NCBI GenBank assembly: GCA_049612785.1
Contig: JBMZBW010000001.1
Location: forward strand, 7-64,006
Direction of reading: 5' to 3'
Length of the DNA stretch: 64,000 nucleotides
Source: Alphaproteobacteria bacterium
GTDB lineage: Bacteria; Pseudomonadota; Alphaproteobacteria; UBA7985
Positions 4,849-30,321 of this stretch are shown here, one piece after another. The notes under the pieces were generated by a model. The model was not told where the DNA came from. It did no database searches and saw nothing but the letters and a program-made list of their open reading frames with translations. The stretch's first letter is position 1. Every line of letters starts with the position of its first letter. Position numbers and translations under genes: made by a program.

Positions 4849-5544
4849 TCAGGCTTCGGACTCGTCGGTCTCGTCCATTGGCGGTGGGGCTGGCACTGGC
4901 TTGGGTGCCCGGCTTTCGACAATGGCTTCCCCTTCTGGAGCTTCCATGCCCGCGTGGAACAGAGGAATGTCCGGTTGATCCTGCTCTGAGGGGTCAACTT
5001 GCGCTGAGTCACCGGCTGAACCCGCATTACCCTGCTGGGTGCGTGGTTTCCGCTCGCGACGCTGGCGGCGGTCCTCGCGGTCACCTTTTTCGCCACGTTC
5101 GCCCCGGTCGCGGTTGCGTTCTCGACGATCTCGGCGGTCATTGCCACCTTCGCCGCCTTCGGAGTCCTCGCGGGCCTGCTGTTCACTGCGTTCCTGCGGT
5201 TCCGGCATATCGGGACGGAAAATCAGGGGATCTTCAAGCGCCTCAGGCGGGAACTGGTCCTTTGGGTTGCCGCCACCACGCCGATTGCCACCGCCCATGA
5301 CTGTCGCAGCCAGATGCAGGCGCAGATAGTGCTCAGCGAACTGGTAGTAGGCTTCAGCCTGAATGTGGTTCCCGGCTGCTGTCGCTTCGCGTGCAAGTGC
5401 AGAGTATTTGTCATAGACCTGATGCGCATTTCCGCGAACGCGAACGTCCGGGCCATTGGAATCAAAAACCTGATTCCGAGTGGGGATCGCACCCTGCTTC
5501 TGTTGCTTTGGCTGACGCCCACGGCGATTATTGCCCTGCCTCAT
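4849..5544 (-). CDS. DUF4167 domain protein with Arg/Asp/Glu-rich low-complexity C-terminus
   Basis: The N-terminus MRQGNNRRGR...QVYDKYSALAREA...AEAYYQFAEHY matches the conserved DUF4167 pattern of alphaproteobacteria. The start was moved to the internal ATG at 5544, which has an AAGGAAA ribosome-binding site. Confidence 0.6.
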   Translation of the reverse strand: MRQGNNRRGRQPKQQKQGAIPTRNQVFDSNGPDVRVRGNAHQVYDKYSALAREATAAGNHIQAEAYYQFAEHYLRLHLAATVMGGGNRRGGGNPKDQFPPEALEDPLIFRPDMPEPQERSEQQAREDSEGGEGGNDRRDRRERNRDRGERGEKGDREDRRQRRERKPRTQQGNAGSAGDSAQVDPSEQDQPDIPLFHAGMEAPEGEAIVESRAPKPVPAPPPMDETDESEA

Positions 5545-5740
5545 GTCGTTTCCTTTGCCCTCAGGCGGAAGTGGTATTGAACGTTTGACGGTCCGGGGGG
5601 TTATGGGAAAACCGCGCGGGAGATCTGTCATCCGAAGCGAGACCGAGAGCCAGCGACCAAACCGCTCGCTCCCAAAGCTTTGGGCTCGCAATTAGCCGGA
5701 ACCTAGACTTTGCGCGCCAGATTTCCAAGCGAAAAAGCCA

Positions 5741-6589
5741 CTACGGATGAGCGACGAACACCAGCGCACGGGGAATACCGGCGAGGTCGTTTCGCTGCGC
5801 GCGCAGGGTCCAGCCGAATGCGTTTGCGATTTCAATCACAGCCTTGGTTTGACCAATCCCAAGTTCAAGCGCCAGAAAACCACCTTCATTGAGAAATCGA
5901 CCCGCGTTTTTCAGGGTATCCCGATAGAAGTCCAAACCATCCGCTCCGCCATCCAGCGCGCGAAGATCGTCATAGTCGCGGACATTCCGATCCAGATGAT
6001 CGAGGTCTGGGGTTGGTATGTAAGGGGGGTTGGAAGCAATGAGGTCAAAACGGGCGTCGACGCCGCTGAACCAATCGCCGACAACAAACCGGGCTCGATC
6101 CTGAAGTCCAAGGGCCTGAGCATTGGACCGCGCTGTTTCGATTGTTTTGCTGTCCTGGTCGATCCCAAGACCATGGGCCGAGTTCAACTCGCTCAGGAGT
6201 GCCAAAAGTATGGCGCCGGAACCCGTGCCAAGGTCCAGAATGGTTTTGGGGGCGGGGTTGCCACAGGTTTCGATGACCAGTTCAACCAGCGTCTCCGTAT
6301 CGGCGCGCGGGTCAAGCGTTGCCCCGCGAATATCCAGCTCTAACCCCCAGAACTCCCGACGTCCCAAAATGCGCGACAGTGGCTCGTCTGCCAGACGTCG
6401 AGCGATCAGGCTGCTGAGAACTTCGAACTGTTCGCGGGTCAGAAGGGCATCAGGCTCGGAAATCTGCTGAACCGTGTCCCACCCACAGGCAAACTCCACC
6501 AGCCGGCGCGCTTCGGTCCGCGGTTGTTCGGCCACTTCATGCAGCGCTTTGGTGGCGTCGGTGAGCCAGGCTTCCAAGCGAAGCAACAA
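5741..6589 (-). CDS. prmC: release factor glutamine N5-methyltransferase PrmC/HemK
   Basis: NPPY motif (IASNPPYIPT) and a SAM motif (LDLGTGSGAI). It sits immediately downstream of prfA. Confidence 0.85.
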   Translation of the reverse strand: MLLRLEAWLTDATKALHEVAEQPRTEARRLVEFACGWDTVQQISEPDALLTREQFEVLSSLIARRLADEPLSRILGRREFWGLELDIRGATLDPRADTETLVELVIETCGNPAPKTILDLGTGSGAILLALLSELNSAHGLGIDQDSKTIETARSNAQALGLQDRARFVVGDWFSGVDARFDLIASNPPYIPTPDLDHLDRNVRDYDDLRALDGGADGLDFYRDTLKNAGRFLNEGGFLALELGIGQTKAVIEIANAFGWTLRAQRNDLAGIPRALVFVAHP

Positions 6590-6593
6590 GGCT

Positions 6594-7670
6594 TTATTCG
6601 CCCAGTTCCGCCAGACGTGCGGCCTGGTCTTCTGCGGTCAAAGCTTCGATCACTTCCCCCAGACCGTCACCGGCTACGATCCTGTCCAGCTTATGCAGGG
6701 TCAGATTGATGCGGTGATCTGAAACCCGGCCCTGCGGGTAGTTGTAAGTCCGGATCCGCTCCGAGCGGTCACCGCTTCCGACTTGGCCCTTACGATTGGC
6801 TGCGCGCTCAGCATCGGCTTCATCCCGTGCTTTCTCATACAGACGCGCGCGCAGGACCCGCATGGCTTCTTCACGGTTGCGGTGCTGTGACTTCTGGCTT
6901 TGCGTGACGATGATCCCGGTCGGAAGGTGGGTAATCCGGACCGCTGAGTCCGTGGTGTTCACGTGCTGACCACCGGCGCCAGAGGCTCGCATGGTGTCGA
7001 TGCGAATGTCTTCGGCCTTGATCTCAATATCGACTTCTTCGGCTTCGGGCAGCACGGCCACTGTTGCCGCTGACGTATGAATGCGACCACCGGACTCAGT
7101 GGCTGGAACACGCTGGACCCTATGCACGCCCGATTCAAACTTGAGTGACGCGAAAACATTGGTGCCGTTAATGCGCGCAGAAACTTCTTTCAGCCCGCCC
7201 ACGTCGTTTTCGCTCATCTCCAGGATCTCGAACTTCCACCCCTGCAGCTCGCAAAACCGTCGGTACATTGCCAGCAAATCCCCGGCGAACAAGCCGGCTT
7301 CATCGCCACCAGTACCGGGTCGAATTTCGAGGATGGCGTTTCGGCTGTCTGCTTCGTCGCGGGGCAGCAGCAGGACCTTCATCCTCTGCTCCGTCGCTTC
7401 GATTTCGTCCTTGAGCGCGCGGGCTTCCTCCTCAGCCATGGCGCGCATTTCTGCGTCATCTTCGCTGGCAGCGAGGGCCTCAGCGTCGTCAAGATCCTGC
7501 ACGGCCTTCTGAAAAGCGCGCATTTCTTCCACCACAGGGCTCATTTCCGAGTATTCGCGGGTGAGCTTGGTGTAGTCCGCGCTTCCAGGTTCGGGATGAT
7601 CGGCGAGAAGGGCTTGAATTTCCTCGTGCCGCCGAACAACGGTTTCGAGTTTGGAGACCAATGAACTCAT
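6594..7670 (-). CDS. prfA: peptide chain release factor 1
   Basis: [20 protein letters not shown] motif and a PxT-type release-factor fold. 358 aa. Confidence 0.95.
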
Positions 7671-20974: not shown

Positions 20975-21064
20975 GGAGAGGTGCCGGAGCGGTCGAACGG
21001 GGCGGTCTCGAAAACCGTTGTGCGCGCAAGCGTACCGAGGGTTCGAATCCCTTCCTCTCCGCCA
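20975..21064 (+). tRNA. tRNA-Ser (anticodon CGA)
   Basis: Hand-folded cloverleaf: GGAGAGG/CCTCTCC acceptor stem, anticodon loop CUCGAAA, long variable arm, TTCGAAT T-loop, encoded CCA. Confidence 0.85.
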
Positions 21065-21132
21065 GCCTTTGTTTGACTGATGGCCCACCACGGGATCTCC
21101 CAAGGGACGCGCGAACGTCTTTTGGAAGAATG

Positions 21133-21909
21133 CTAATTTCGTACAGCAACAACTTCCATACAAACGCGATATCTTTTGCTAATTCCATAACGCACTGGGT
21201 TAAAACCGCACTCTTCCAGTAATGAAAACAGCCGGCTTCTACTGAAATTGTGATAGTGTTCCAATTCACCTAAGTATGGATTGGCATTATTTTTTGTCAT
21301 CAATTTCCATACAAGATTCTCTGTATTTGGCATGGACAAAGTAATGCACCCACCTTCTTCCATCTTGGAATGGAGAGAGAGCAAAACATCTTTTGGATAG
21401 GGAATGTGCTCTAGAACATCCATCATACTGACAACAGCAATTTCACTTTCGAAATCAATAGTTTCAACTAATTGACAGTACGCTTCGAAACCAAGCTGTT
21501 TTATTGATCGTACACTTGTGTTTCTCAAATCAACGCCAATCGGATGAAATCCAAATTCTTCTGCCGTGAAGAGAAGGGAGCCATTGCCGAAACCAACATC
21601 AAGCCAAGTTCCACTCGATTTATAGGGCAGGACTTTCTCAATGATATCAGCGGACTTTACTCTTTGCTGTTCAATTTGAAATCCAACTTTCTGATTTTCC
21701 TGTGTATTTTGGAATATAATTTCAGCGGCGTCGTCTGTGAAATACCCGTCAATAAATTGGTGGCCACAGTCGTTACAGTCCATCCACTGCATCTTTCGCG
21801 GTATAATTTTATTGTACATGGGGTGTTCACCGCAGTCCCCCGTCAAAGATTTCGCAATTGAATCGGAGCTACATAAGGGGCAGCGGTCATAGATTATTCT
21901 TGGTTCCAC
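21133..21909 (-). CDS. class I SAM-dependent methyltransferase with N-terminal Cys4 zinc ribbon, in a low-GC cassette
   Basis: CPLC...CNDCGH zinc-ribbon motif, SAM motif I (LDVGFGNGSL), and a conserved VLEHIPYP. The gene is about 38% GC against a roughly 57% background. Confidence 0.7.
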   Translation of the reverse strand: MEPRIIYDRCPLCSSDSIAKSLTGDCGEHPMYNKIIPRKMQWMDCNDCGHQFIDGYFTDDAAEIIFQNTQENQKVGFQIEQQRVKSADIIEKVLPYKSSGTWLDVGFGNGSLLFTAEEFGFHPIGVDLRNTSVRSIKQLGFEAYCQLVETIDFESEIAVVSMMDVLEHIPYPKDVLLSLHSKMEEGGCITLSMPNTENLVWKLMTKNNANPYLGELEHYHNFSRSRLFSLLEECGFNPVRYGISKRYRVCMEVVAVRN

Positions 21910-22122
21910 TTTTTTATGGCCTTCCTTATTTTATCATTTCTCACCGCAGCGCCTTTGCGCCTTCGAAATTGAGATTTTATAATTTCTTATTGAGACGATG
22001 CATACTTAGTCATCTTTATCGGCCCGGTCCTAAAGTTCAATAACGCAATTTTTTGATTTCCCTGACGATGCTTCTGGTAGTGGCAGAGTCGGGTTGTGTG
22101 CTTGAGCGAGCGCAGCCGGGGT

Positions 22123-23478: not shown

Positions 23479-23930
23479 CCGTTACCCTGACCTGACGCGT
23501 CCTTCTGTGGGACCGCCTGCCGTCAAGATCGACCCTTCATGACCTTTCATCAAGAAGTTTTGTCTTTCCCTGAAGCCCGTGTTGCGCGTGAGCGTCTTAA
23601 AGGGCGCTGAAGGGGCAAGAGAGGCGATATTTGTTTGGGGTGGGGCTGTCGTTTTTGTGCCGCGTCGCATCATAAAGTTGAAGTAGGGAAGGCGAAATTA
23701 CCCTTAGAGGGCCAAAATCACCCACGACTCTGAACATTATGCAACCCCGAAAACATTGGAAAATCGCATAAATAGTGATGCACGACTGCAACATTACTGT
23801 AAAAAGGCGCTGTAACCTATTGAAATAAGGCATTATCATTTCGTAAAAGGGCAATGCATTTGAATTTGAAGCGCACTTTATCAGCGCATCCGGTTGAGTT
23901 TTTTCAGATTGGCCGGGCATTTTTGGAGAA

Positions 23931-25577
23931 ATGATTATGAAATTTCACTTGTTCGCAGGCTCATGCCTTGCAGGTGTCTCGGCTGCCAGCATTTCAAACG
24001 CAGTGGATATTACCCTCGGCGGCTCTATCGATATGGGTATCGAGTTCGGGGTCAGCAAAAACAGCGGTGCCCTGACCTTTGCAGAGGCTTACAACGGCTT
24101 TACCCTCTCCTTCGACCTGAGCGGTACAACCGATATGGGTATGAAGTACGGTGGTTCCTTCTCGTTGGGCACCACGGCTTCCATTGAGTTCAATCCTTAC
24201 GTTTCCGGTGACAAAAAATACCTCGGTAAGGCATCGGTTGAAGGCGCAAACGACATCGTCGGTATGGCCTACAACGTCTCTGGTGGTGCAGCGATCGCTT
24301 CATCCCACATCGTCGCAGTAAAGATCAACTCAAGCTGGCGCTCGGTTGGTGATGTTCGGACGGATTACGTCATCGAGCTGTCCCCAAGCTTTGTTTCCAG
24401 CAACATCTGTAAGGTTGCTGGCCGCGCTGTGGCTGTCGGCTCAAGCTCAATCGTCGCTGGGGATTACGGTCCGTCGACTGCGCCGCAATATGCAAACGCT
24501 GTTGCCAGCGGATACTTGCCTGTTGGTCAGGTTGTTCAGAACACAACCACGAGCGTCCCTGCCGCTGTTGGCGGCGTTGCTGGTCTAAACGCTGGCCAAG
24601 CTTCCGTTGCTGCCACTGTTGGCTTCGAGACGACAAAGGGTGCTGTCGTAGCGATCACAAAGCCGATTGCCGCTATTGCAGCAAGCGCATTTTCAAACCC
24701 CGGCTCCGCAAACATCACCCGTTTTGCCTACCAGGACAAAGGTAGCGTCGACTTTGATGGCTCTGGCAGTGACGGACCAACCGTTACCAGCGCGCGGATT
24801 TACGCTGGCCCGTTCATGGAAGTCAAAATGGCGTCTTCAACCACGAAACTGGTCGTTGGTGCGGCCTGTGTCGAAGGCTTGAACACTTCTGACGCGGCTT
24901 TCTACCTTGATAACGTTTCCAAGGTCATGACTGCGACTGATGCTTCGATCTTCGTCGAAGGCGGTTTTGGTCGACTGACCCTGCAGTCCGGTGATTACTC
25001 TGGTGGTGTTACATCGATTGCCGGTGCCGGCGATCAGGCTGACATCAAGGCTGACGGTCTGGTCGTGATTGGTGAGAGCGTCGGTCTGTTGGGCGCCAAC
25101 CCTTATGTTGCTGTCGATCTGGCACCAAGCTCCTCTTTGGGTGAGCTGGAGCTTGTCACCGGCGCAAGTGTCAACATGGGCAATCTAATTGCGGCCTTTG
25201 ACTTGAAAGTCGGTAGCGATGATCTGATCGCGCTCGATACCTGGGATCTGGGCATGGACTACTCCATGGGCGGCTTGGCCGTTGGCTTTGCGGCTGATTC
25301 CAACAATGACTGGGGTCTGTCTGCAAGCATGGCCGCTGGCGGTTTTGCAGTCGATGCTGAATTCGGCGCAACCGGTAACGAAGACCACACCAAGTCGGGC
25401 ATCGTGTACTCGATCGTTGGTGCAACATCGCTCAACGGCTTTGGCATCTCGCTGGGTCTGGATCAGGATCTGAAGACGTCCTTCGCGGTGTCTTACGGTC
25501 TGGGCAATCTGAACCTCTACGCTGGCTATGATGTTGGTGATGAAGGTGGTGCCGTTGGCGCGACACTGTCCTTCTAA
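23931..25577 (+). CDS. porin-like outer membrane protein (Rhodobacter-type porin family), unusually large (548 aa), paralog 1
   Basis: Signal peptide. Gly/Ala/Ser/Thr/Val-rich beta-strand composition with no hydrophobic helices. The N-terminal GGSIDMGIEFG and SGTTDMGMKYGGSF motifs resemble Rhodobacter porins. It ends in a C-terminal Phe (ATLSF). The upstream region is AT-rich with a strong GGAG ribosome-binding site. Confidence 0.65.
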   Translation: MIMKFHLFAGSCLAGVSAASISNAVDITLGGSIDMGIEFGVSKNSGALTFAEAYNGFTLSFDLSGTTDMGMKYGGSFSLGTTASIEFNPYVSGDKKYLGKASVEGANDIVGMAYNVSGGAAIASSHIVAVKINSSWRSVGDVRTDYVIELSPSFVSSNICKVAGRAVAVGSSSIVAGDYGPSTAPQYANAVASGYLPVGQVVQNTTTSVPAAVGGVAGLNAGQASVAATVGFETTKGAVVAITKPIAAIAASAFSNPGSANITRFAYQDKGSVDFDGSGSDGPTVTSARIYAGPFMEVKMASSTTKLVVGAACVEGLNTSDAAFYLDNVSKVMTATDASIFVEGGFGRLTLQSGDYSGGVTSIAGAGDQADIKADGLVVIGESVGLLGANPYVAVDLAPSSSLGELELVTGASVNMGNLIAAFDLKVGSDDLIALDTWDLGMDYSMGGLAVGFAADSNNDWGLSASMAAGGFAVDAEFGATGNEDHTKSGIVYSIVGATSLNGFGISLGLDQDLKTSFAVSYGLGNLNLYAGYDVGDEGGAVGATLSF

Positions 25578-25637
25578 AAGGACCTTTTTTTCTCGCAGCT
25601 CCGGTCGCTTTGCGACTGGGGGTGCATCCTAGAGTGA

Positions 25638-25678
25638 AAAGAGCCTGTCAGGGTCCATCCTTGGCAGGCTCTTTTTCG
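25638..25678 (+). terminator. Rho-independent terminator downstream of porin 1
   Basis: agagcctg...caggctct stem followed by ttttt. Confidence 0.5.
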
Positions 25679-25755
25679 TCTGTGCCCCAAGACTGGCGTG
25701 GACAAGAGGAAGGCAGGTCGTCAAACTCCGGCTTCTCGTAAAACCGGAACGTGCA

Positions 25756-28248
25756 ATGACCACCAAAATCAGCTCAGACTACCTCATTGTCGGCACTGGC
25801 GCCGTTGGAATGGCATTCGCGGACGTTTTGCTGAGCGAAACAGACGCGACAATGACCATGGTAGACCGCTATCCGGCTCCCGGAGGGCATTGGAATGTCG
25901 CTTATCCCTTTGTTACGCTGCATCAACCCAGTGCTTTCTATGGCGTGAGCTCAAAAGAGCTGAGCAAAGGGCATGTTGATCAGATCGGCTTGAACAAAGG
26001 ACTGAGTGATCTGGCCACGGGCGCCGAAATCAAAGCCTATTTCGATGAAGTGATGCGCCAAACATTTCTGCCTTCGGGCCGAGTGCAGTATTTTCCCATG
26101 TCAGACTATCAGGGGCAGGGGCGCTTCACCTCTTTGCTCTCCGGCGCTGAGAGCGTGGTTGAATTCGACACGCTCGTCGACGCAACCTTTCTTAAAACCA
26201 GCGTGCCAGCGACGCATGAGCCGAACTTTACTGTCGATCCGGGCGTTTCTTTCATTCCGATCAACGGATTGGTCAACGTTCAGGAGCCTCCAGAGCGCTA
26301 TGTCATCGTAGGAGGCGGAAAAACGGGCATTGATGCCTGTCTCTGGCTCTTGCAGAACGGCGTTGATGCGGATCGTATCACTTGGATCATCCCAAGAGAC
26401 GCGTGGATGCTGGACCGTAACAACACCCAGCCGCGGCGCGAATTTTTCGATCAAACCATTGGCTCACAGGCCGCTTTGATGGAATCGCTGGCCGAAGCAA
26501 CCGACCGGGACGATGCCTTTGACCGGTTGGAGGCCTCTGGCTATTTCCTGCGGTTGGATCCTGCGGTTCGACCGGCCATGTTCCACGGCGCAACCATTTC
26601 TCCGGATGAAGTCACAGCGCTGCGGAGCATCAAAGACGTGGTGCGAATGGGACGTGTTACCCGCATCAGCGCAACGCAAATTGAGTTGACGGAAGGGACA
26701 ATTCCGACGTCATCAAGGGCCTTGCACGTCGATTGCAGCGCTTCCGCCATCACCAATCTCGAAACAAAACCGATCTTCAATAACAAGGTCATCACCCCAC
26801 AGATGGTGCGTTCCTATCAGCCTATTTTCAGCGCAGCACTCATCGCGCACGTTGAGGCGGCTTACGAGGGCGACGCTAAGAAGAATGCCCTGTGTGAGGT
26901 TGTTCCCGTGCCGAATTCGGACAGCGACTTCTTTCGCTTTACTGCCGTTTCAATGATGAACCAGTACAATTGGGGGCAGGATAAGACATTGCGCCGCTGG
27001 ATTGCTGATAATCGGCTGGATGGGTTCAGTAAGCTGATCTCAGACATCCCGAAGGAGGATACGCACCGCCGTGGAACGATCCAGCGCATTCGAGATAACT
27101 CAATGCCTGCAATGATGAAGTTACAGCGCTTCATCAAAGAGCTCGACGACGCGGAAGCCTCCACAAACCCACAGCCGGTGACAGAGCTGCAGATCCATAA
27201 ATCTGACCACACCCAAACACGGCTCATGCCTTTCGCACTCCGTGAGCTGGAGGACGGAGAGGTGAGGATGAAAGTCGAGCAGTTCGGGTTTTCGTCCAAC
27301 AACATAACCTATGCGGTCACGGGGCACAGTCTGCGCTACTGGCAGTTCTTTCCGCCGCAAGGTGACAGTGATGACAGTTGGGGTCTGCTGCCGGTTTGGG
27401 GGTTTGCGACCGTTCAAGAAAGTCGATGTGAAGACCTGGAAGAAGGTAGTCGGCTCTTTGGCTACTGGCCAACGGCGAGCCACGTGACCATTCGGCCAAC
27501 CCACATAAACGCGTCACGTGTGGTTGATGGCTCTCCGCACCGTGCGGATTTGGCGCGAGCCTACAACGCTTATCGGCGCATGGGGGAGCCTAATCCCATG
27601 ATGGATCAACCGATGATGCTGCTCTCACCACTCTATATTACCTCCTGGTGCCTATGGGATTATCTCGTTGATAATCAGTGGTTTAGCGCTAACCGCGTTG
27701 TCATAGTCAGCGCTTCATCCAAGACCAGCATCGGCCTCGCAACGGCCTTGAGCATGGACCCGGAAGCCAAGCCTGCCACGGGGTTAACCAGCAGCCGCAA
27801 CCGTGATTTTGTCGCTGGCCTTGGCCTTTATGATCAAATCGTTTCCTACGATGATCTGACCGAACTCGAAGACACGCCGACTGTGGTTGTCGACATGTCC
27901 GGCAATGCGGAGGTTTTGTCCGGTATTCAGCAATACCTGGGCGATAATCTGAAATACTGCATCAACGTAGGCCTGACGCACTGGGATCAACCTGCCCAAG
28001 GGACCGGTATCCCGAAGGATCGTAAGGAAATGTTCTTTGCCCCTGGGCACATCCAGAAACGCTCGGCAGAGTGGGGGGGCAAGGAACTCGACCAACGCAC
28101 GACAGCATTCATGATGCAGGCGGGGATGAAGGCGCAGGGTTGGATTTCGTACCAGTCTCATCGTGGTTTACAGGGTCTGGAAGCGCTCTACGGCGAGGTC
28201 GTTCAGGGAGCGATTGCCCCTGACAAGGGGCTGGTCATCCAGATGTGA
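25756..28248 (+). CDS. two-domain oxidoreductase: N-terminal FAD/NAD(P)-binding flavin-monooxygenase-like domain fused to a C-terminal medium-chain dehydrogenase/reductase (Zn-ADH-like) domain
   Basis: N-terminus has two Rossmann motifs (IVGTGAVG and VIVGGGKTGID) and a GGHWN segment, in FMO-like order. The C-terminus from about residue 500 has a GroES-like/Rossmann pattern (WGLLPVWGFATV...GSRLFGYWP...VVIVSASSKTSIG) typical of MDR-family enzymes. 830 aa. Confidence 0.55.
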   Translation: MTTKISSDYLIVGTGAVGMAFADVLLSETDATMTMVDRYPAPGGHWNVAYPFVTLHQPSAFYGVSSKELSKGHVDQIGLNKGLSDLATGAEIKAYFDEVMRQTFLPSGRVQYFPMSDYQGQGRFTSLLSGAESVVEFDTLVDATFLKTSVPATHEPNFTVDPGVSFIPINGLVNVQEPPERYVIVGGGKTGIDACLWLLQNGVDADRITWIIPRDAWMLDRNNTQPRREFFDQTIGSQAALMESLAEATDRDDAFDRLEASGYFLRLDPAVRPAMFHGATISPDEVTALRSIKDVVRMGRVTRISATQIELTEGTIPTSSRALHVDCSASAITNLETKPIFNNKVITPQMVRSYQPIFSAALIAHVEAAYEGDAKKNALCEVVPVPNSDSDFFRFTAVSMMNQYNWGQDKTLRRWIADNRLDGFSKLISDIPKEDTHRRGTIQRIRDNSMPAMMKLQRFIKELDDAEASTNPQPVTELQIHKSDHTQTRLMPFALRELEDGEVRMKVEQFGFSSNNITYAVTGHSLRYWQFFPPQGDSDDSWGLLPVWGFATVQESRCEDLEEGSRLFGYWPTASHVTIRPTHINASRVVDGSPHRADLARAYNAYRRMGEPNPMMDQPMMLLSPLYITSWCLWDYLVDNQWFSANRVVIVSASSKTSIGLATALSMDPEAKPATGLTSSRNRDFVAGLGLYDQIVSYDDLTELEDTPTVVVDMSGNAEVLSGIQQYLGDNLKYCINVGLTHWDQPAQGTGIPKDRKEMFFAPGHIQKRSAEWGGKELDQRTTAFMMQAGMKAQGWISYQSHRGLQGLEALYGEVVQGAIAPDKGLVIQM

Positions 28249-28296: not shown

Positions 28297-28641
28297 ATGA
28301 TGTCGATTTTTCGCGATAGGCAGGTAAGGCTTGCCATGCTGCTCCTGTACGGGTTGGCGGCACTGTGCCTGTCGCTTGCCCATGCCGAGCGGATCTTTGC
28401 GGAACCTGTCTTGGATCGACCCAGCTTCTGTCTCAGTGAGGTTGAGGCGAACGAGGCCGGGGGTTTGCCGGATTGCGGTCTTTGCAAAGACTTATCTGGT
28501 GCTGTCCCGACTCATTTTTCGCCTGACGCATTTGCCATCTCTCAGCATGTTGAAGCGCTGCGCTTTGTCTCCATCATCAATGTCGGTCTGACATCGCACT
28601 TACCGCCTGTTGGCTCGCGAGCACCCCCTTTGTTTTCCTGA
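28297..28641 (+). CDS. small exported hypothetical protein (signal peptide, four Cys) immediately upstream of PCu(A)C
   Basis: Signal-like MLLLYGLAALCLSLAHA and a CGLC motif. It is co-oriented with, and 37 bp upstream of, the copper-chaperone genes. This could be a DUF2946-like copper-associated protein, but I cannot confirm that. Confidence 0.3.
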   Translation: MMSIFRDRQVRLAMLLLYGLAALCLSLAHAERIFAEPVLDRPSFCLSEVEANEAGGLPDCGLCKDLSGAVPTHFSPDAFAISQHVEALRFVSIINVGLTSHLPPVGSRAPPLFS

Positions 28642-28678: not shown

Positions 28679-29185
28679 ATGAAAAAGCTTCTTACTGTTT
28701 TTGCCCTTAGCGCTGCTCTGGGCACATCACTCTTTTCCCACGCAGACGATCAGGCGGACCATCACGGTTTGATGATTACGGAGGCCTGGAGCCGCGTGAC
28801 CACACCCGGGGCCAAAGTTGGCGGCGGCTATCTGAAGATTACCAACCATAGCGACAACGACGATCACTTGGAGTCCGTCGCCTCGGACCATTCTGCCAAG
28901 GCCGAAGTTCATTCCATGGTCATGCAAGACGACGTCATGATCATGCGTCCGCTCGAAGAGGGTTTGGCCATTCCAGCAGGTGAGACAGTGTATCTGGCGC
29001 CGGGCGGTCTGCATCTTATGTTCATGCAACTCCGTCAGCCTCACGTTGTCGGGGAACCATTCGACGCCACGCTGAGCTTTAAGCATGCCGGTGAGAAAAC
29101 CGTGTCGTTCGAAGTCTTGTCGATGCGAGACAGCATGGCGCGCGAAACGCAATCTGATGATCATGCGGAGGAACACAAGCATTGA
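28679..29185 (+). CDS. periplasmic copper chaperone PCu(A)C (DUF461)
   Basis: Signal peptide and His/Met-rich motifs (AEVHSMVMQ...MIMRP...GGLHLMFMQL) characteristic of PCuAC. The start was trimmed to the ATG at 28679, which has an AGGAAAC ribosome-binding site. Confidence 0.8.
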   Translation: MKKLLTVFALSAALGTSLFSHADDQADHHGLMITEAWSRVTTPGAKVGGGYLKITNHSDNDDHLESVASDHSAKAEVHSMVMQDDVMIMRPLEEGLAIPAGETVYLAPGGLHLMFMQLRQPHVVGEPFDATLSFKHAGEKTVSFEVLSMRDSMARETQSDDHAEEHKH

Positions 29186-29781
29186 AAGCGCTTCGTTATA
29201 CCTTGTGGGCAGCAGTCGTTCTGGCCGTTGCCGTTGCTGGCGCTATGGTCTGGACGCTCAACCAGCCGGGTCAAACAAACTCCTCAGGAACCGGAGCGCC
29301 CACGCTGGGCGCGCCGTTTTCTCTGGTTGAGGCGAACGGTGAGCCCATAAGCGAGCGCGCCTTTGCCGGGCGACCGACGGCTCTGTTTTTTGGTTTTACT
29401 CAGTGTCCTGAGGTGTGTCCGGTTTCGCTTTACGAGGTCTCTACCCTCATGGATGAACTGGGGGCAGAGCGCCGCGATCTGCAGGCTTTTTTCATCAGTG
29501 TAGACCCGGAACGCGATACACCTGAGGTTCTTGAGTCTTACATCTCACCTTTTGCTGACAACATTCGCGGAATCACGGGTGACTTGTCCGGCATTCTCGC
29601 GCTGGCTAAAGCGTGGGGGATTCACGTCGAAAAGCTGCCTTTGGCAGATGGCGACTACACGGTTGATCACACGGCATCGGTGATTTTGGTGGATCGGGCG
29701 GGAAAGTTCAGAGGAACAATTGCCTACCGCGAAAATCATGAAACCGCCCTGGAAAAACTCAAGCTGATCATCGATCTCTAG
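29182..29781 (+). CDS. SCO1/SenC family copper chaperone (thioredoxin-like)
   Basis: CPEVCP metal-binding motif, an N-terminal transmembrane anchor, and a 4-bp overlap with the PCuAC gene. Confidence 0.85.
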   Translation: MKALRYTLWAAVVLAVAVAGAMVWTLNQPGQTNSSGTGAPTLGAPFSLVEANGEPISERAFAGRPTALFFGFTQCPEVCPVSLYEVSTLMDELGAERRDLQAFFISVDPERDTPEVLESYISPFADNIRGITGDLSGILALAKAWGIHVEKLPLADGDYTVDHTASVILVDRAGKFRGTIAYRENHETALEKLKLIIDL

Positions 29782-29943
29782 GCTTCTGATTCTCTTTTTT
29801 TAATAGGTTTGTCTGCATTTTAAACGATTTAAGATAGGTTATGCGTGGATTCGCGTATATCAGTCGCATAACAGCATTAAATGTCAGTATCATTAGAATA
29901 AGTCGATAATAACTAAATCACCTTTTGGTTTAGGATTTCGACT

Positions 29944-30321
29944 GTGAATCTCGTCATGAAGTTAGCGGCTTTGGTGCTTGTGCTGTGTCCGGCACTGGCA
30001 AACGCCCAGTTTCAGAAAGTGCGTGCAACCGTGAGCCTTCCGGAGCGGTTCGCCCAGACTAAAGTCTGCGATACTTCAGCTTTTCCCCCTTTTAACCGAC
30101 ATGGGCCGTGGCATTTTGATCTGTGTAACGGTGCTGCAGAAGTCATCGTGAGTTGCCACATCTCGGCTTCGATGCGGGCTAAGGAGGTTTTGCCTTCCCC
30201 CATGCTTCGTCGCGCTCTACTGCGGATGATTGAGGAGTTTGAGGCTGGCGCAGGCGTGGAAGAGGCTGTTCACAGCGCTTTGGAGCTCAGATGCGAATAC
30301 GTGTTGAGTGTACCGGGATAA
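29944..30321 (+). CDS. hypothetical secreted protein (signal peptide, Cys/His-containing)
   Basis: Signal peptide MKLAALVLVLCPALANA. Preceded by an AT-rich intergenic region. No recognisable family. Confidence 0.4.
   Translation: MNLVMKLAALVLVLCPALANAQFQKVRATVSLPERFAQTKVCDTSAFPPFNRHGPWHFDLCNGAAEVIVSCHISASMRAKEVLPSPMLRRALLRMIEEFEAGAGVEEAVHSALELRCEYVLSVPG

Follow-up and report, generated by a model that had tools for sequence, protein, structure and literature searches.

Background

The gene analysed here is an open reading frame (ORF) of 830 amino acids (aa) at positions 25756-28248 of a 64,000-nucleotide stretch of an alphaproteobacterial genome (contig JBMZBW010000001.1; hereafter the window, to whose plus strand all coordinates refer unless stated otherwise), and it joins an N-terminal flavoprotein module (N module) to a C-terminal DUF2855 module (C module). 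For the N-terminal part, the closest described systems are the class B monooxygenases, especially the small bacterial 'type II' flavin-containing monooxygenases (FMOs; SMFMO 4a9w, CFMO 4usq and PSFMO 4usr; PMC3829993, PMC4220118) and cyclohexanone monooxygenase (CHMO), which carry two GxGxx[GA] motifs in the same order as the N module and, after the first Rossmann motif, a GGxW...L.L..P segment that the N module also displays. These enzymes provide its best family-profile matches in the Protein Data Bank (PDB; 2.6e-5 to 1.8e-3) and its best structural similarity, with template modelling (TM) scores of 0.50-0.61. However, the small FMOs are chains of 357-361 aa, whereas the N module spans ~465 aa with an extra helical C-terminal third; compared to class B monooxygenases in general, it lacks the FMO motif and the Baeyer-Villiger monooxygenase (BVMO) fingerprints, displays 12-14% identity and belongs to no Pfam family. 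As published, the BVMO fingerprints correspond to [A/G]GxWxxxx[F/Y]P[G/M]xxxD and FxGxxxHxxxW[P/D], and the FMO-identifying motif to FxGxxxHxxx[Y/F] (PMC4498894).

For the C-terminal part, the zinc-free medium-chain dehydrogenases/reductases (MDR; PTGR1, plant alkenal double-bond reductases, Pseudomonas aeruginosa PA1648, Escherichia coli CurA and quinone oxidoreductases) show the same GroES-like plus Rossmann fold, but the module is 11-14% identical to them, carries an invariant SASSKTS in place of AxxGxxG and gives no significant sequence match. The standalone PF11017 (DUF2855) proteins (~350-380 aa) are the other close system: the C module matches the full length of their model, with the difference that it is covalently joined here to a flavoprotein, whereas most of the members seen in this analysis are single-domain proteins with their own TetR or LysR regulator. 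As regards gene arrangement, EthR/EthA of Mycobacterium tuberculosis is a TetR-controlled flavin monooxygenase module, in which EthA is a canonical type I BVMO with the fingerprints. By analogy, a divergent TetR gene lies beside a gene for a two-Rossmann flavoenzyme at eight loci of the N family; in contrast to EthA, this family is devoid of BVMO fingerprints, and the window locus has no TetR.

Results

Our analysis revealed a two-module oxidoreductase architecture that is undescribed, as far as we searched, and is built of ordinary folds. The gene is complete and, as reported by the initial annotation, the ORF list and translation display it as one uninterrupted frame starting with ATG; the motifs quoted in that annotation were all recovered, i.e., GTGAVG (aa 13-18), GGHWN (aa 43-47), GGGKTG (aa 186-191) and RVVIVSASSKTSIG (also VVIVSASSKTSIG) at about aa 647-660. 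The fusion is genuine and conserved, with more than 120 full-length homologues in a large protein collection, the best 120 of which are 817-894 aa long with 98-100% query coverage and 46-92% identity. These homologues originate from ENA, Logan, JGI and NCBI assemblies as well as from cultured Maribacter isolates; most of them are unnamed, and the usual name of the others is 'DUF2855 family protein'. As an example, a homologue with 71% identity (P0007) was found on 16 independent contigs. When compared to the closest locus, the ratio of nonsynonymous to synonymous substitution rates (dN/dS) reached 0.05 for the N module, 0.06 for the DUF2855 module and 0.16 for the linker, and both modules are under strong purifying selection. 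In an alignment of 43 fusions, mean column identity amounted to 67%, and numerous residues of either half were invariant. The sequencing or frameshift error between two genes that had been considered at the outset is thus ruled out by the independent homologues, in which the same ORF recurs across assemblies and isolates, and by the dN/dS values.

The least constrained part of the protein is the linker (aa 471-509; 27166-27282), as seen from the consensus of the fusion alignment, the junctions of split genes and its dN/dS; in its consensus, PQFQV is the counterpart of MxQFQV, with which separate DUF2855 genes begin. In the full-length AlphaFold2 model (predicted local distance difference test, pLDDT, 87.4; predicted TM score, pTM, 0.71), a long helix at aa 436-470 leads into the second module. 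The protein carries no signal peptide and is thus presumably cytoplasmic. The possibility that one known family spans the whole protein was rejected because Pfam and NCBIfam cover the C half only, and NCBIfam names no family for the 830-aa protein; the Pfam check itself confirmed DUF2855 on the C half and returned only sub-threshold Rossmann families on the N half. Within the library searched, we found no paper mentioning DUF2855, which agrees with the first impression that such a fusion had not been described.

The N module (aa 1-470; 25756-27165) was delineated by AlphaFold2, Foldseek and profile search as two dinucleotide-binding domains arranged in a class-B-monooxygenase-like manner and closing in the long helix mentioned above. 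The AlphaFold2 model of aa 1-472 alone (pLDDT 85.3, pTM 0.84) displays the general fold of flavoproteins with two dinucleotide domains. Compared to the PDB with Foldseek, it retrieved small bacterial FMOs (4usq, 4a9w and 4c5o; TM 0.58-0.61) and CHMO (TM 0.50-0.52), together with dihydrolipoyl dehydrogenase, for which the E-values were equal or similar to those of the monooxygenases but the TM only 0.40-0.43; YpdA (7a76), DiatB and the oxidase domain of the LbmA polyketide synthase were also among the matches. At the sequence level, a 50-member family profile searched against PDB sequences placed 4usq (2.6e-5) and 4a9w (2.4e-4) ahead of CHMO (1.8e-3; positions 6-195), and the best match of the single-sequence PDB search was the thioredoxin-reductase-like 2zbw (E 7e-5). 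The Pfam matches on the N half, i.e., Pyr_redox_2 (E 2e-4 to 7e-4; 19.5-21.4 bits versus a cut-off of 26.1) and NAD_binding_8, were all sub-threshold; no model exceeded its cut-off in the Pfam scan of the N-module family, and the Pfam FMO-like and K_oxygenase models gave no match to the N module.

Within this module, the first Rossmann motif GTGAVG (25792-25809), found by regular expression, is the presumed FAD site; G13, G15 and D37, the last of which ends the second strand, are invariant in the 43 fusions and in 50 diverse family members. The GGHWN segment (25882-25896) belongs to the family signature PGGHWN.AYPF..LHQP and, when aligned with HMMER to 4usq and 4a9w, lines up with the GGxW...L.L..P segment that small bacterial FMOs carry; its residues G43, G44 and W46, as well as Y50, are invariant family-wide. 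The second Rossmann motif GGGKTG (26311-26328), likewise found by regular expression, is the presumed NAD(P)H site, with conserved G186, G188 and W210; W210 is invariant over the whole family, and R214 only among the fusions and close standalone N proteins. For the motif tests, the definitions published in PMC4498894 were applied as regular expressions to the window protein, the 43 fusions and the 50 relatives. Both Rossmann motifs occurred as patterns in 43/43 fusions and 50/50 diverse relatives. Both BVMO fingerprints were absent from the window protein and found in 0/43 fusions and 0/50 relatives, the sole resemblance to the first one being a shortened GGHWNVAYP, and the FMO motif was also absent from the window protein, all 43 fusions and all 50 relatives. 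Note that the N module contains no redox cysteine pair (CxxC or CxxxxC) and gives no Pfam match to Pyr_redox_dim, while Cys327, in a VDC(S/T)A motif, is near-invariant.

Because these defining motif tests failed, we rejected membership of the N module in the BVMO, FMO and disulfide-reductase families. Judged by its motifs, the module appears class-B-like in layout and placed outside these three families. The initial annotation had proposed a two-domain fusion in which an FMO-like flavoprotein carrying two dinucleotide-binding domains is joined to a DUF2855/MDR-like module; this was maintained, with the qualification that the N module, being devoid of the fingerprint motifs, resembles class B enzymes but falls outside the FMO and BVMO families. 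Oxygenase chemistry of the N module is a putative assignment, given the absent fingerprints and a TM to any solved monooxygenase of only 0.4-0.6. An exhaustive profile search showed that the family counts at least 947 representatives at E<1e-30 and 2384 at E<1e-10, each representative being one 50%-identity cluster; the best 150 are mostly standalone proteins of ~445-490 aa, and the cluster names hold nothing beyond 'hypothetical protein' or 'NAD(P)-binding protein'. A standalone homologue was also observed on a haloarchaeal megaplasmid (locus L042, Natronosalvus amylolyticus, 4935-6404; 40% identity; annotated 'NAD(P)-binding protein'), and the N family therefore spans bacteria and archaea.

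The DUF2855 module (aa 510-820; 27283-28215) consists of a GroES-like and a Rossmann domain according to Pfam and Foldseek. It matches Pfam PF11017 with an E-value of 5.7e-95 (319 bits versus a cut-off of 30.9) over model positions 1-334 of 335. Against the PDB, the top 30 Foldseek matches (E 4e-13 to 3e-11) were almost all zinc-free MDR reductases; matches of this kind (E 4e-13 to 1e-10; TM 0.58-0.72 when normalised by target length; 11-14% identity) include PTGR1/LTB4 12-hydroxydehydrogenase, plant double-bond reductases, PA1648, quinone oxidoreductases and enoyl-thioester reductase. DUF2855 is thus predicted, from the modelled structure, to fold like the zinc-free MDR double-bond/quinone reductases, and the description of the C half as 'MDR-like or DUF2855-type' proved correct for the fold (Foldseek) as well as for the family (PF11017). 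We also looked for proof at the sequence level that DUF2855 is an MDR enzyme, and this was rejected: the DUF2855 profile had no match among PDB sequences, hhalign to Escherichia coli CurA covered the GroES-like part only (probability 2%, E 0.021), and pairwise alignment to the same protein was no better than shuffled controls, so that all three tests were non-significant and the support is that of the fold search. Among the Pfam families ADH_N, ADH_N_2 and ADH_zinc_N, the sole signal was a weak ADH_N_2 match (E 0.026) in one of nine DUF2855 members.

The SASSKTS loop (aa 652-658; 27709-27729) was found by regular expression in 42 of the 43 fusions, and S652-T657 and G660 form invariant columns of the fusion alignment. 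Comparison by eye with E. coli CurA would place this loop where MDR enzymes have their coenzyme loop AxxGxxG, which is absent from the window protein by regular expression and occurs in 3/43 fusions only. With AxxGxxG missing and no significant sequence similarity to MDR enzymes, NADPH is a putative cofactor of DUF2855, whose binding we infer. The Rossmann-like half displays an invariant polar and aromatic cluster made of SASSKTS, T678, N682, D713, G716-N717 and T741-H742-W743. Overall, the C module is 30-44% identical to standalone or split DUF2855 proteins.

The two modules occur fused, split and alone. In a scan of one genome per species (33 loci), close fusions with 70-89% identity were found in marine alphaproteobacterial metagenome-assembled genomes (L001-L004), and standalone N genes with 57-65% identity in Sphingomonadaceae, Caulobacterales, Hellea, Marinicaulis, Henriciella and Sphingorhabdus, with no DUF2855 gene near them in the fetched flanks (up to 8 kb). 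Most relatives of the N module have no DUF2855 gene within 8 kb, and it can therefore function by itself. Adjacent separate genes were found in Pseudomonadales (L026), Pseudomonadota (L027) and Saprospiraceae (L013), where the split junctions are real stops and starts: the L027 junction is a 4-base ATGA overlap and the L026 junction a 68-nt spacer with an AGAGGA ribosome-binding site. A Pikeienuella locus (L015) is apparently split too, where only a reading-frame difference was seen. Note that the split DUF2855 genes start with MxQFQV, of which PQFQV in the fusion linker is the remnant.

Among representative clusters, DUF2855 fusions amount to one full-length representative and one fragment. 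Neighbour-joining trees of each domain grouped the alphaproteobacterial fusions in one clade with 100/100 bootstraps, and a single clade of all fusions obtained 0-1/100; it follows that fusion or fission of the modules took place repeatedly, the deep nodes being too weakly supported to tell these two histories apart. This fused, split and standalone pattern argues, as Rosetta-stone evidence from genomes, that the modules may act together and on one substrate. As a side observation, another fusion partner of the N module is DUF4336, in P0185 (678 aa; Pfam E 7.7e-12), and the flavoprotein therefore gained more than one partner.

Recurrent regulators were found near these genes. Indeed, a divergent orthologous TetR (TetR_N and TetR_C_33 domains; 46-50% identity between loci) flanks standalone N genes and split pairs at the eight loci mentioned above, and standalone DUF2855 genes on plasmids adjoin TetR or LysR regulators. 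Adjacent transporters comprise MatE (in the window clade), MFS and HlyD/ABC/MacB; MatE was rejected as a partner transferred together with the fusion, since the MatE proteins of the window and of Maribacter are only 32% identical, i.e., a generic similarity. Nearby stress and detoxification genes include ABM, DoxX, DUF4440, glyoxalase, DinB_2, KatG and an SOD/TlpA/MarR island. The latter was observed on plasmid pHM2 of Rhizobium sp. SSA_523 (L039), where a standalone N gene (5998-7389) lies in an oxidative/nitrosative stress island with genes for a TlpA-family disulfide reductase, superoxide dismutase, MarR, a peroxidase-related enzyme, Rrf2, truncated haemoglobin and hmpA. In addition, esterases or lactonases are encoded within a few genes at several loci (Abhydrolase_3 in L017, L018 and L032; SGL in L048; Abhydrolase_1 in L049 and L054), which fits with ester or lactone products.

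Within the window, neither module has a second copy. The upstream neighbour is an exported 548-aa ORF (23931-25577), rich in Gly, Ala and Ser with a C-terminal Phe, which has no Pfam match and is conserved in the close clade only; it is the putative porin of the initial annotation. Two hairpins separate it from the fusion gene: a strong one with a U-run just upstream of the gene (25636-25676), identified by RNA folding and terminator scan, and a smaller terminator-like one that precedes it (25568-25583). Folding of 25560-25690, which holds both, yielded -65.4 kcal/mol (z -7.0), and 0/200 shuffles were as good. The fusion gene probably has its own promoter because of this very stable terminator hairpin, and no promoter-like site was found upstream of it. 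Farther from the fusion gene, the flanks consist of housekeeping genes (obg, proB, proA, L21, a hemY-like gene, tsaD and rsmB). We also observed a dip in GC content to 0.42-0.44 versus ~0.55 elsewhere at 21000-22000, over a Methyltransf_23 gene (21133-21909, minus strand) that may have been horizontally acquired, and smaller dips at 23500-24000 and 29500-30000. In a TARA Oceans contig of the related clade (L034), a Cas3 gene (HD and helicase; 1-886) lies ~7 kb upstream of the fusion and is apparently unrelated to it.

Downstream, the fusion gene is followed by copper genes. In Bordetella pertussis, the copper-sensing ORF CruR (DUF2946) lies upstream of the genes that it controls, and homologues of CruR take the first position in copper operons, some of which contain PCuAC and Sco (PMC9426467). 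The 114-aa ORF at 28297-28641, which is not part of the enzyme, carries the hallmarks of such a leader, i.e., an export signal, a CxxC motif (aa 60-63) and RAPP at aa 108-111 (GSRAPP), which is separated from CxxC by 44 residues (versus 45 in CruR) and followed by three residues and the stop, with PCuAC and Sco downstream. However, its gap to the next gene is ~37 nt whereas PMC9426467 describes long intergenic regions, and Pfam DUF2946 (PF11162) scored 18.9 bits (E 0.0026), below its cut-off of 23.7. The pattern is kept in six loci of the clade (L002, L003, L004, L033, L034 and L036), in which the middle of the protein diverges. Going by these hallmarks, the 114-aa ORF would be a copper-responsive leader heading PCuAC-SCO1, and since CruR homologues occupy the first position in copper operons, the small cysteine protein probably belongs to the copper operon as its leader.

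PCuAC itself (28679-29185; Pfam PF04314 at 1.9e-35) is given by the mechanical ORF a TTG start at 28610, overlapping the preceding ORF; its real start is probably ATG 28679, which gives MKKLLTVFALSAALG (signal peptide) with an AGGAAA ribosome-binding site ahead and leaves ~37 nt after the CruR-like stop. SCO1/SenC follows at 29182-29781 (Pfam PF02630 at 2.6e-45). Just past it, an ORF of 125 aa (29944-30321) with a signal peptide and several Cys has no family match, is conserved in the same clade loci (cluster c5) and may be a further member of the copper operon.

Only members of the close clade (L002-L004 and L033-L036; at least 70% identity) keep the fusion gene followed by the small ORF, PCuAC and SCO1, and no copper genes were found near the other fused, split or standalone loci examined. 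A copper/redox unit as a general association was thus rejected from the comparison of at least 20 loci and the identification of the CruR-type leader. The enzyme is tied to copper by local synteny alone; read-through across the 48-base gap may occur, and the fusion gene probably lies outside the adjacent copper-chaperone operon. The redox/copper-handling unit put forward by the initial annotation was consequently not retained, given that the synteny is limited to close relatives and that the cysteine protein heads an operon of its own.

Discussion

Taken together, we tentatively favour, as a reading that falls slightly short of an even chance, a cytoplasmic NAD(P)H-dependent oxidoreductase whose two modules would act one after the other on a single small lipophilic or electrophilic compound, within a detoxifying or catabolic response that can be induced. 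The data above show the architecture, the fold classes, the conservation, the fused or split occurrence of the two halves and the recurrent regulators; we infer which cofactors are used, which step comes first, what chemistry takes place and which class of substrate is involved. The N module, built like class B flavoprotein monooxygenases, would bind FAD and NAD(P)H, and the C module is built like zinc-free MDR NADPH-dependent double-bond/quinone reductases. The MDR-like module may then reduce an activated C=C or C=O (enone, quinone or an alcohol/ketone pair), the flavin module could oxygenate the product by a Baeyer-Villiger or heteroatom reaction via C4a-hydroperoxyflavin, and neighbouring hydrolases and efflux pumps would handle what is released. 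Upon induction, the enzyme would serve to detoxify or degrade a xenobiotic or stress metabolite rather than to handle copper. The specific order in which DUF2855 reduction precedes flavin oxygenation, followed by hydrolases and efflux, is a doubtful part of this scheme. We also regard as rather unlikely a new bifunctional system, represented by the fusion and by the split operons, in which an MDR-derived reductase with an unusual SASSKTS cofactor loop and a fingerprint-less class-B-like oxygenase would couple reduction and oxygenation, turning for example an enone into a ketone and the latter into an ester or lactone, with a marine xenobiotic or an algal metabolite as substrate.

Several observations weigh against the favoured oxidoreductase reading. 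On the flavoprotein side, these are the absence of the BVMO fingerprints and of the FMO motif from the window protein, the fusions and the relatives, and a TM to any solved monooxygenase of only 0.4-0.6 with Foldseek. On the DUF2855 side, AxxGxxG is missing from the window protein, and the sequence similarity to MDR enzymes remains non-significant in the profile, hhalign and shuffle-controlled pairwise comparisons. As for the coupling of the two modules and its regulation, most N-module relatives have no DUF2855 gene within 8 kb, no TetR orthologue lies in the window, and the neighbourhoods are heterogeneous with no universal metabolic partner across the loci examined. In addition, the literature search turned up no biochemistry for either family.

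The main rival, which we consider unlikely, is that the N module works as a flavin reductase or dehydrogenase that depends on NAD(P)H, in the manner of thioredoxin-reductase-like ferredoxin reductases, the bacillithiol-disulfide reductase YpdA or NDH-2-like enzymes; the fusion would then be purely reductive, or the flavin would hand electrons to a substrate held by DUF2855. Such a reductase would account for 2zbw as the best single-sequence PDB match (E 7e-5), for YpdA (7a76) among the structural matches and dihydrolipoyl dehydrogenase E-values equal to those of the monooxygenases, for the missing FMO and BVMO fingerprints and for the near-invariant Cys327 in VDC(S/T)A. However, the module has neither a CxxC/CxxxxC pair nor a Pyr_redox_dim domain, its TM to dihydrolipoyl dehydrogenase (0.40-0.43) is lower than to class B monooxygenases (0.50-0.61), and the diverse family profile ranks small FMOs and CHMO best among PDB sequences. 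It is improbable that DUF2855 is instead non-catalytic, i.e., an MDR-derived ligand-binding, oligomerisation or regulatory domain that delivers or senses the substrate of the flavoprotein. The replacement of the glycine-rich AxxGxxG by SASSKTS, the lack of a significant sequence match to any solved MDR enzyme and the fact that most N-family members work without DUF2855 would be expected in that case, but dozens of invariant polar and aromatic residues in the Rossmann-like half, a dN/dS of 0.06 and standalone genes with their own regulators are rather those of an autonomous enzyme.

As to the role of the fusion, a tailoring enzyme of secondary metabolism instead of detoxification is very improbable: one standalone DUF2855 gene does lie on a Streptomyces plasmid among acyltransferase, methyltransferase, FAD-oxidoreductase and MFS genes, and DiatB and the oxidase domain of the LbmA polyketide synthase (PKS) are structural neighbours of the N module, but no PKS, non-ribosomal peptide synthetase or other core biosynthetic genes were found near any fusion locus examined, and the flanks in the window are housekeeping genes. 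A redox/copper unit formed by the fusion, the exported cysteine protein, PCuAC and SCO1, for instance to supply reducing power for copper delivery, appears extremely unlikely. The genes share their orientation, only 48 bases with a weak hairpin lie between the fusion and the next gene, and the gene order is kept in L002-L004 and L033-L036; against this, the synteny is restricted to relatives with at least 70% identity and the other examined loci have no copper genes nearby, the enzyme lacks a signal peptide, unlike the exported PCuAC and SCO1, and the 114-aa gene has the hallmarks of CruR, whose homologues are reported first in copper operons. Finally, an assembly or frameshift artefact joining two genes, for which the separate adjacent genes of other taxa could plead, is refuted for practical purposes by the same uninterrupted ORF in many independent assemblies (16 contigs for P0007) and isolate genomes, by purifying selection on the linker itself and by an AlphaFold2 model in which the junction is a continuous structure.

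Conclusions

Both folds are ordinary, and the proteins are already present in databases as 'DUF2855 family protein'; the finding has no bearing on copper biology. Neither half has a characterised relative, and the N family, with its hundreds of representatives, is not covered by any Pfam model. The fused, split and standalone pattern provides a concrete functional link between the two families, which should be assayed together, and testable material is available in the Maribacter isolates, in Sphingorhabdus sp. Alg239-R122 and in the orthologous TetR, the ligand of which would disclose what class of substrate is involved. If the two modules prove to be a coupled reductase-oxygenase, the protein would be a compact two-step biocatalyst, and otherwise an ordinary uncharacterised oxidoreductase. 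If the bifunctional system is true, it would provide the first function for two 'dark' families, DUF2855 and the unnamed flavoprotein family.

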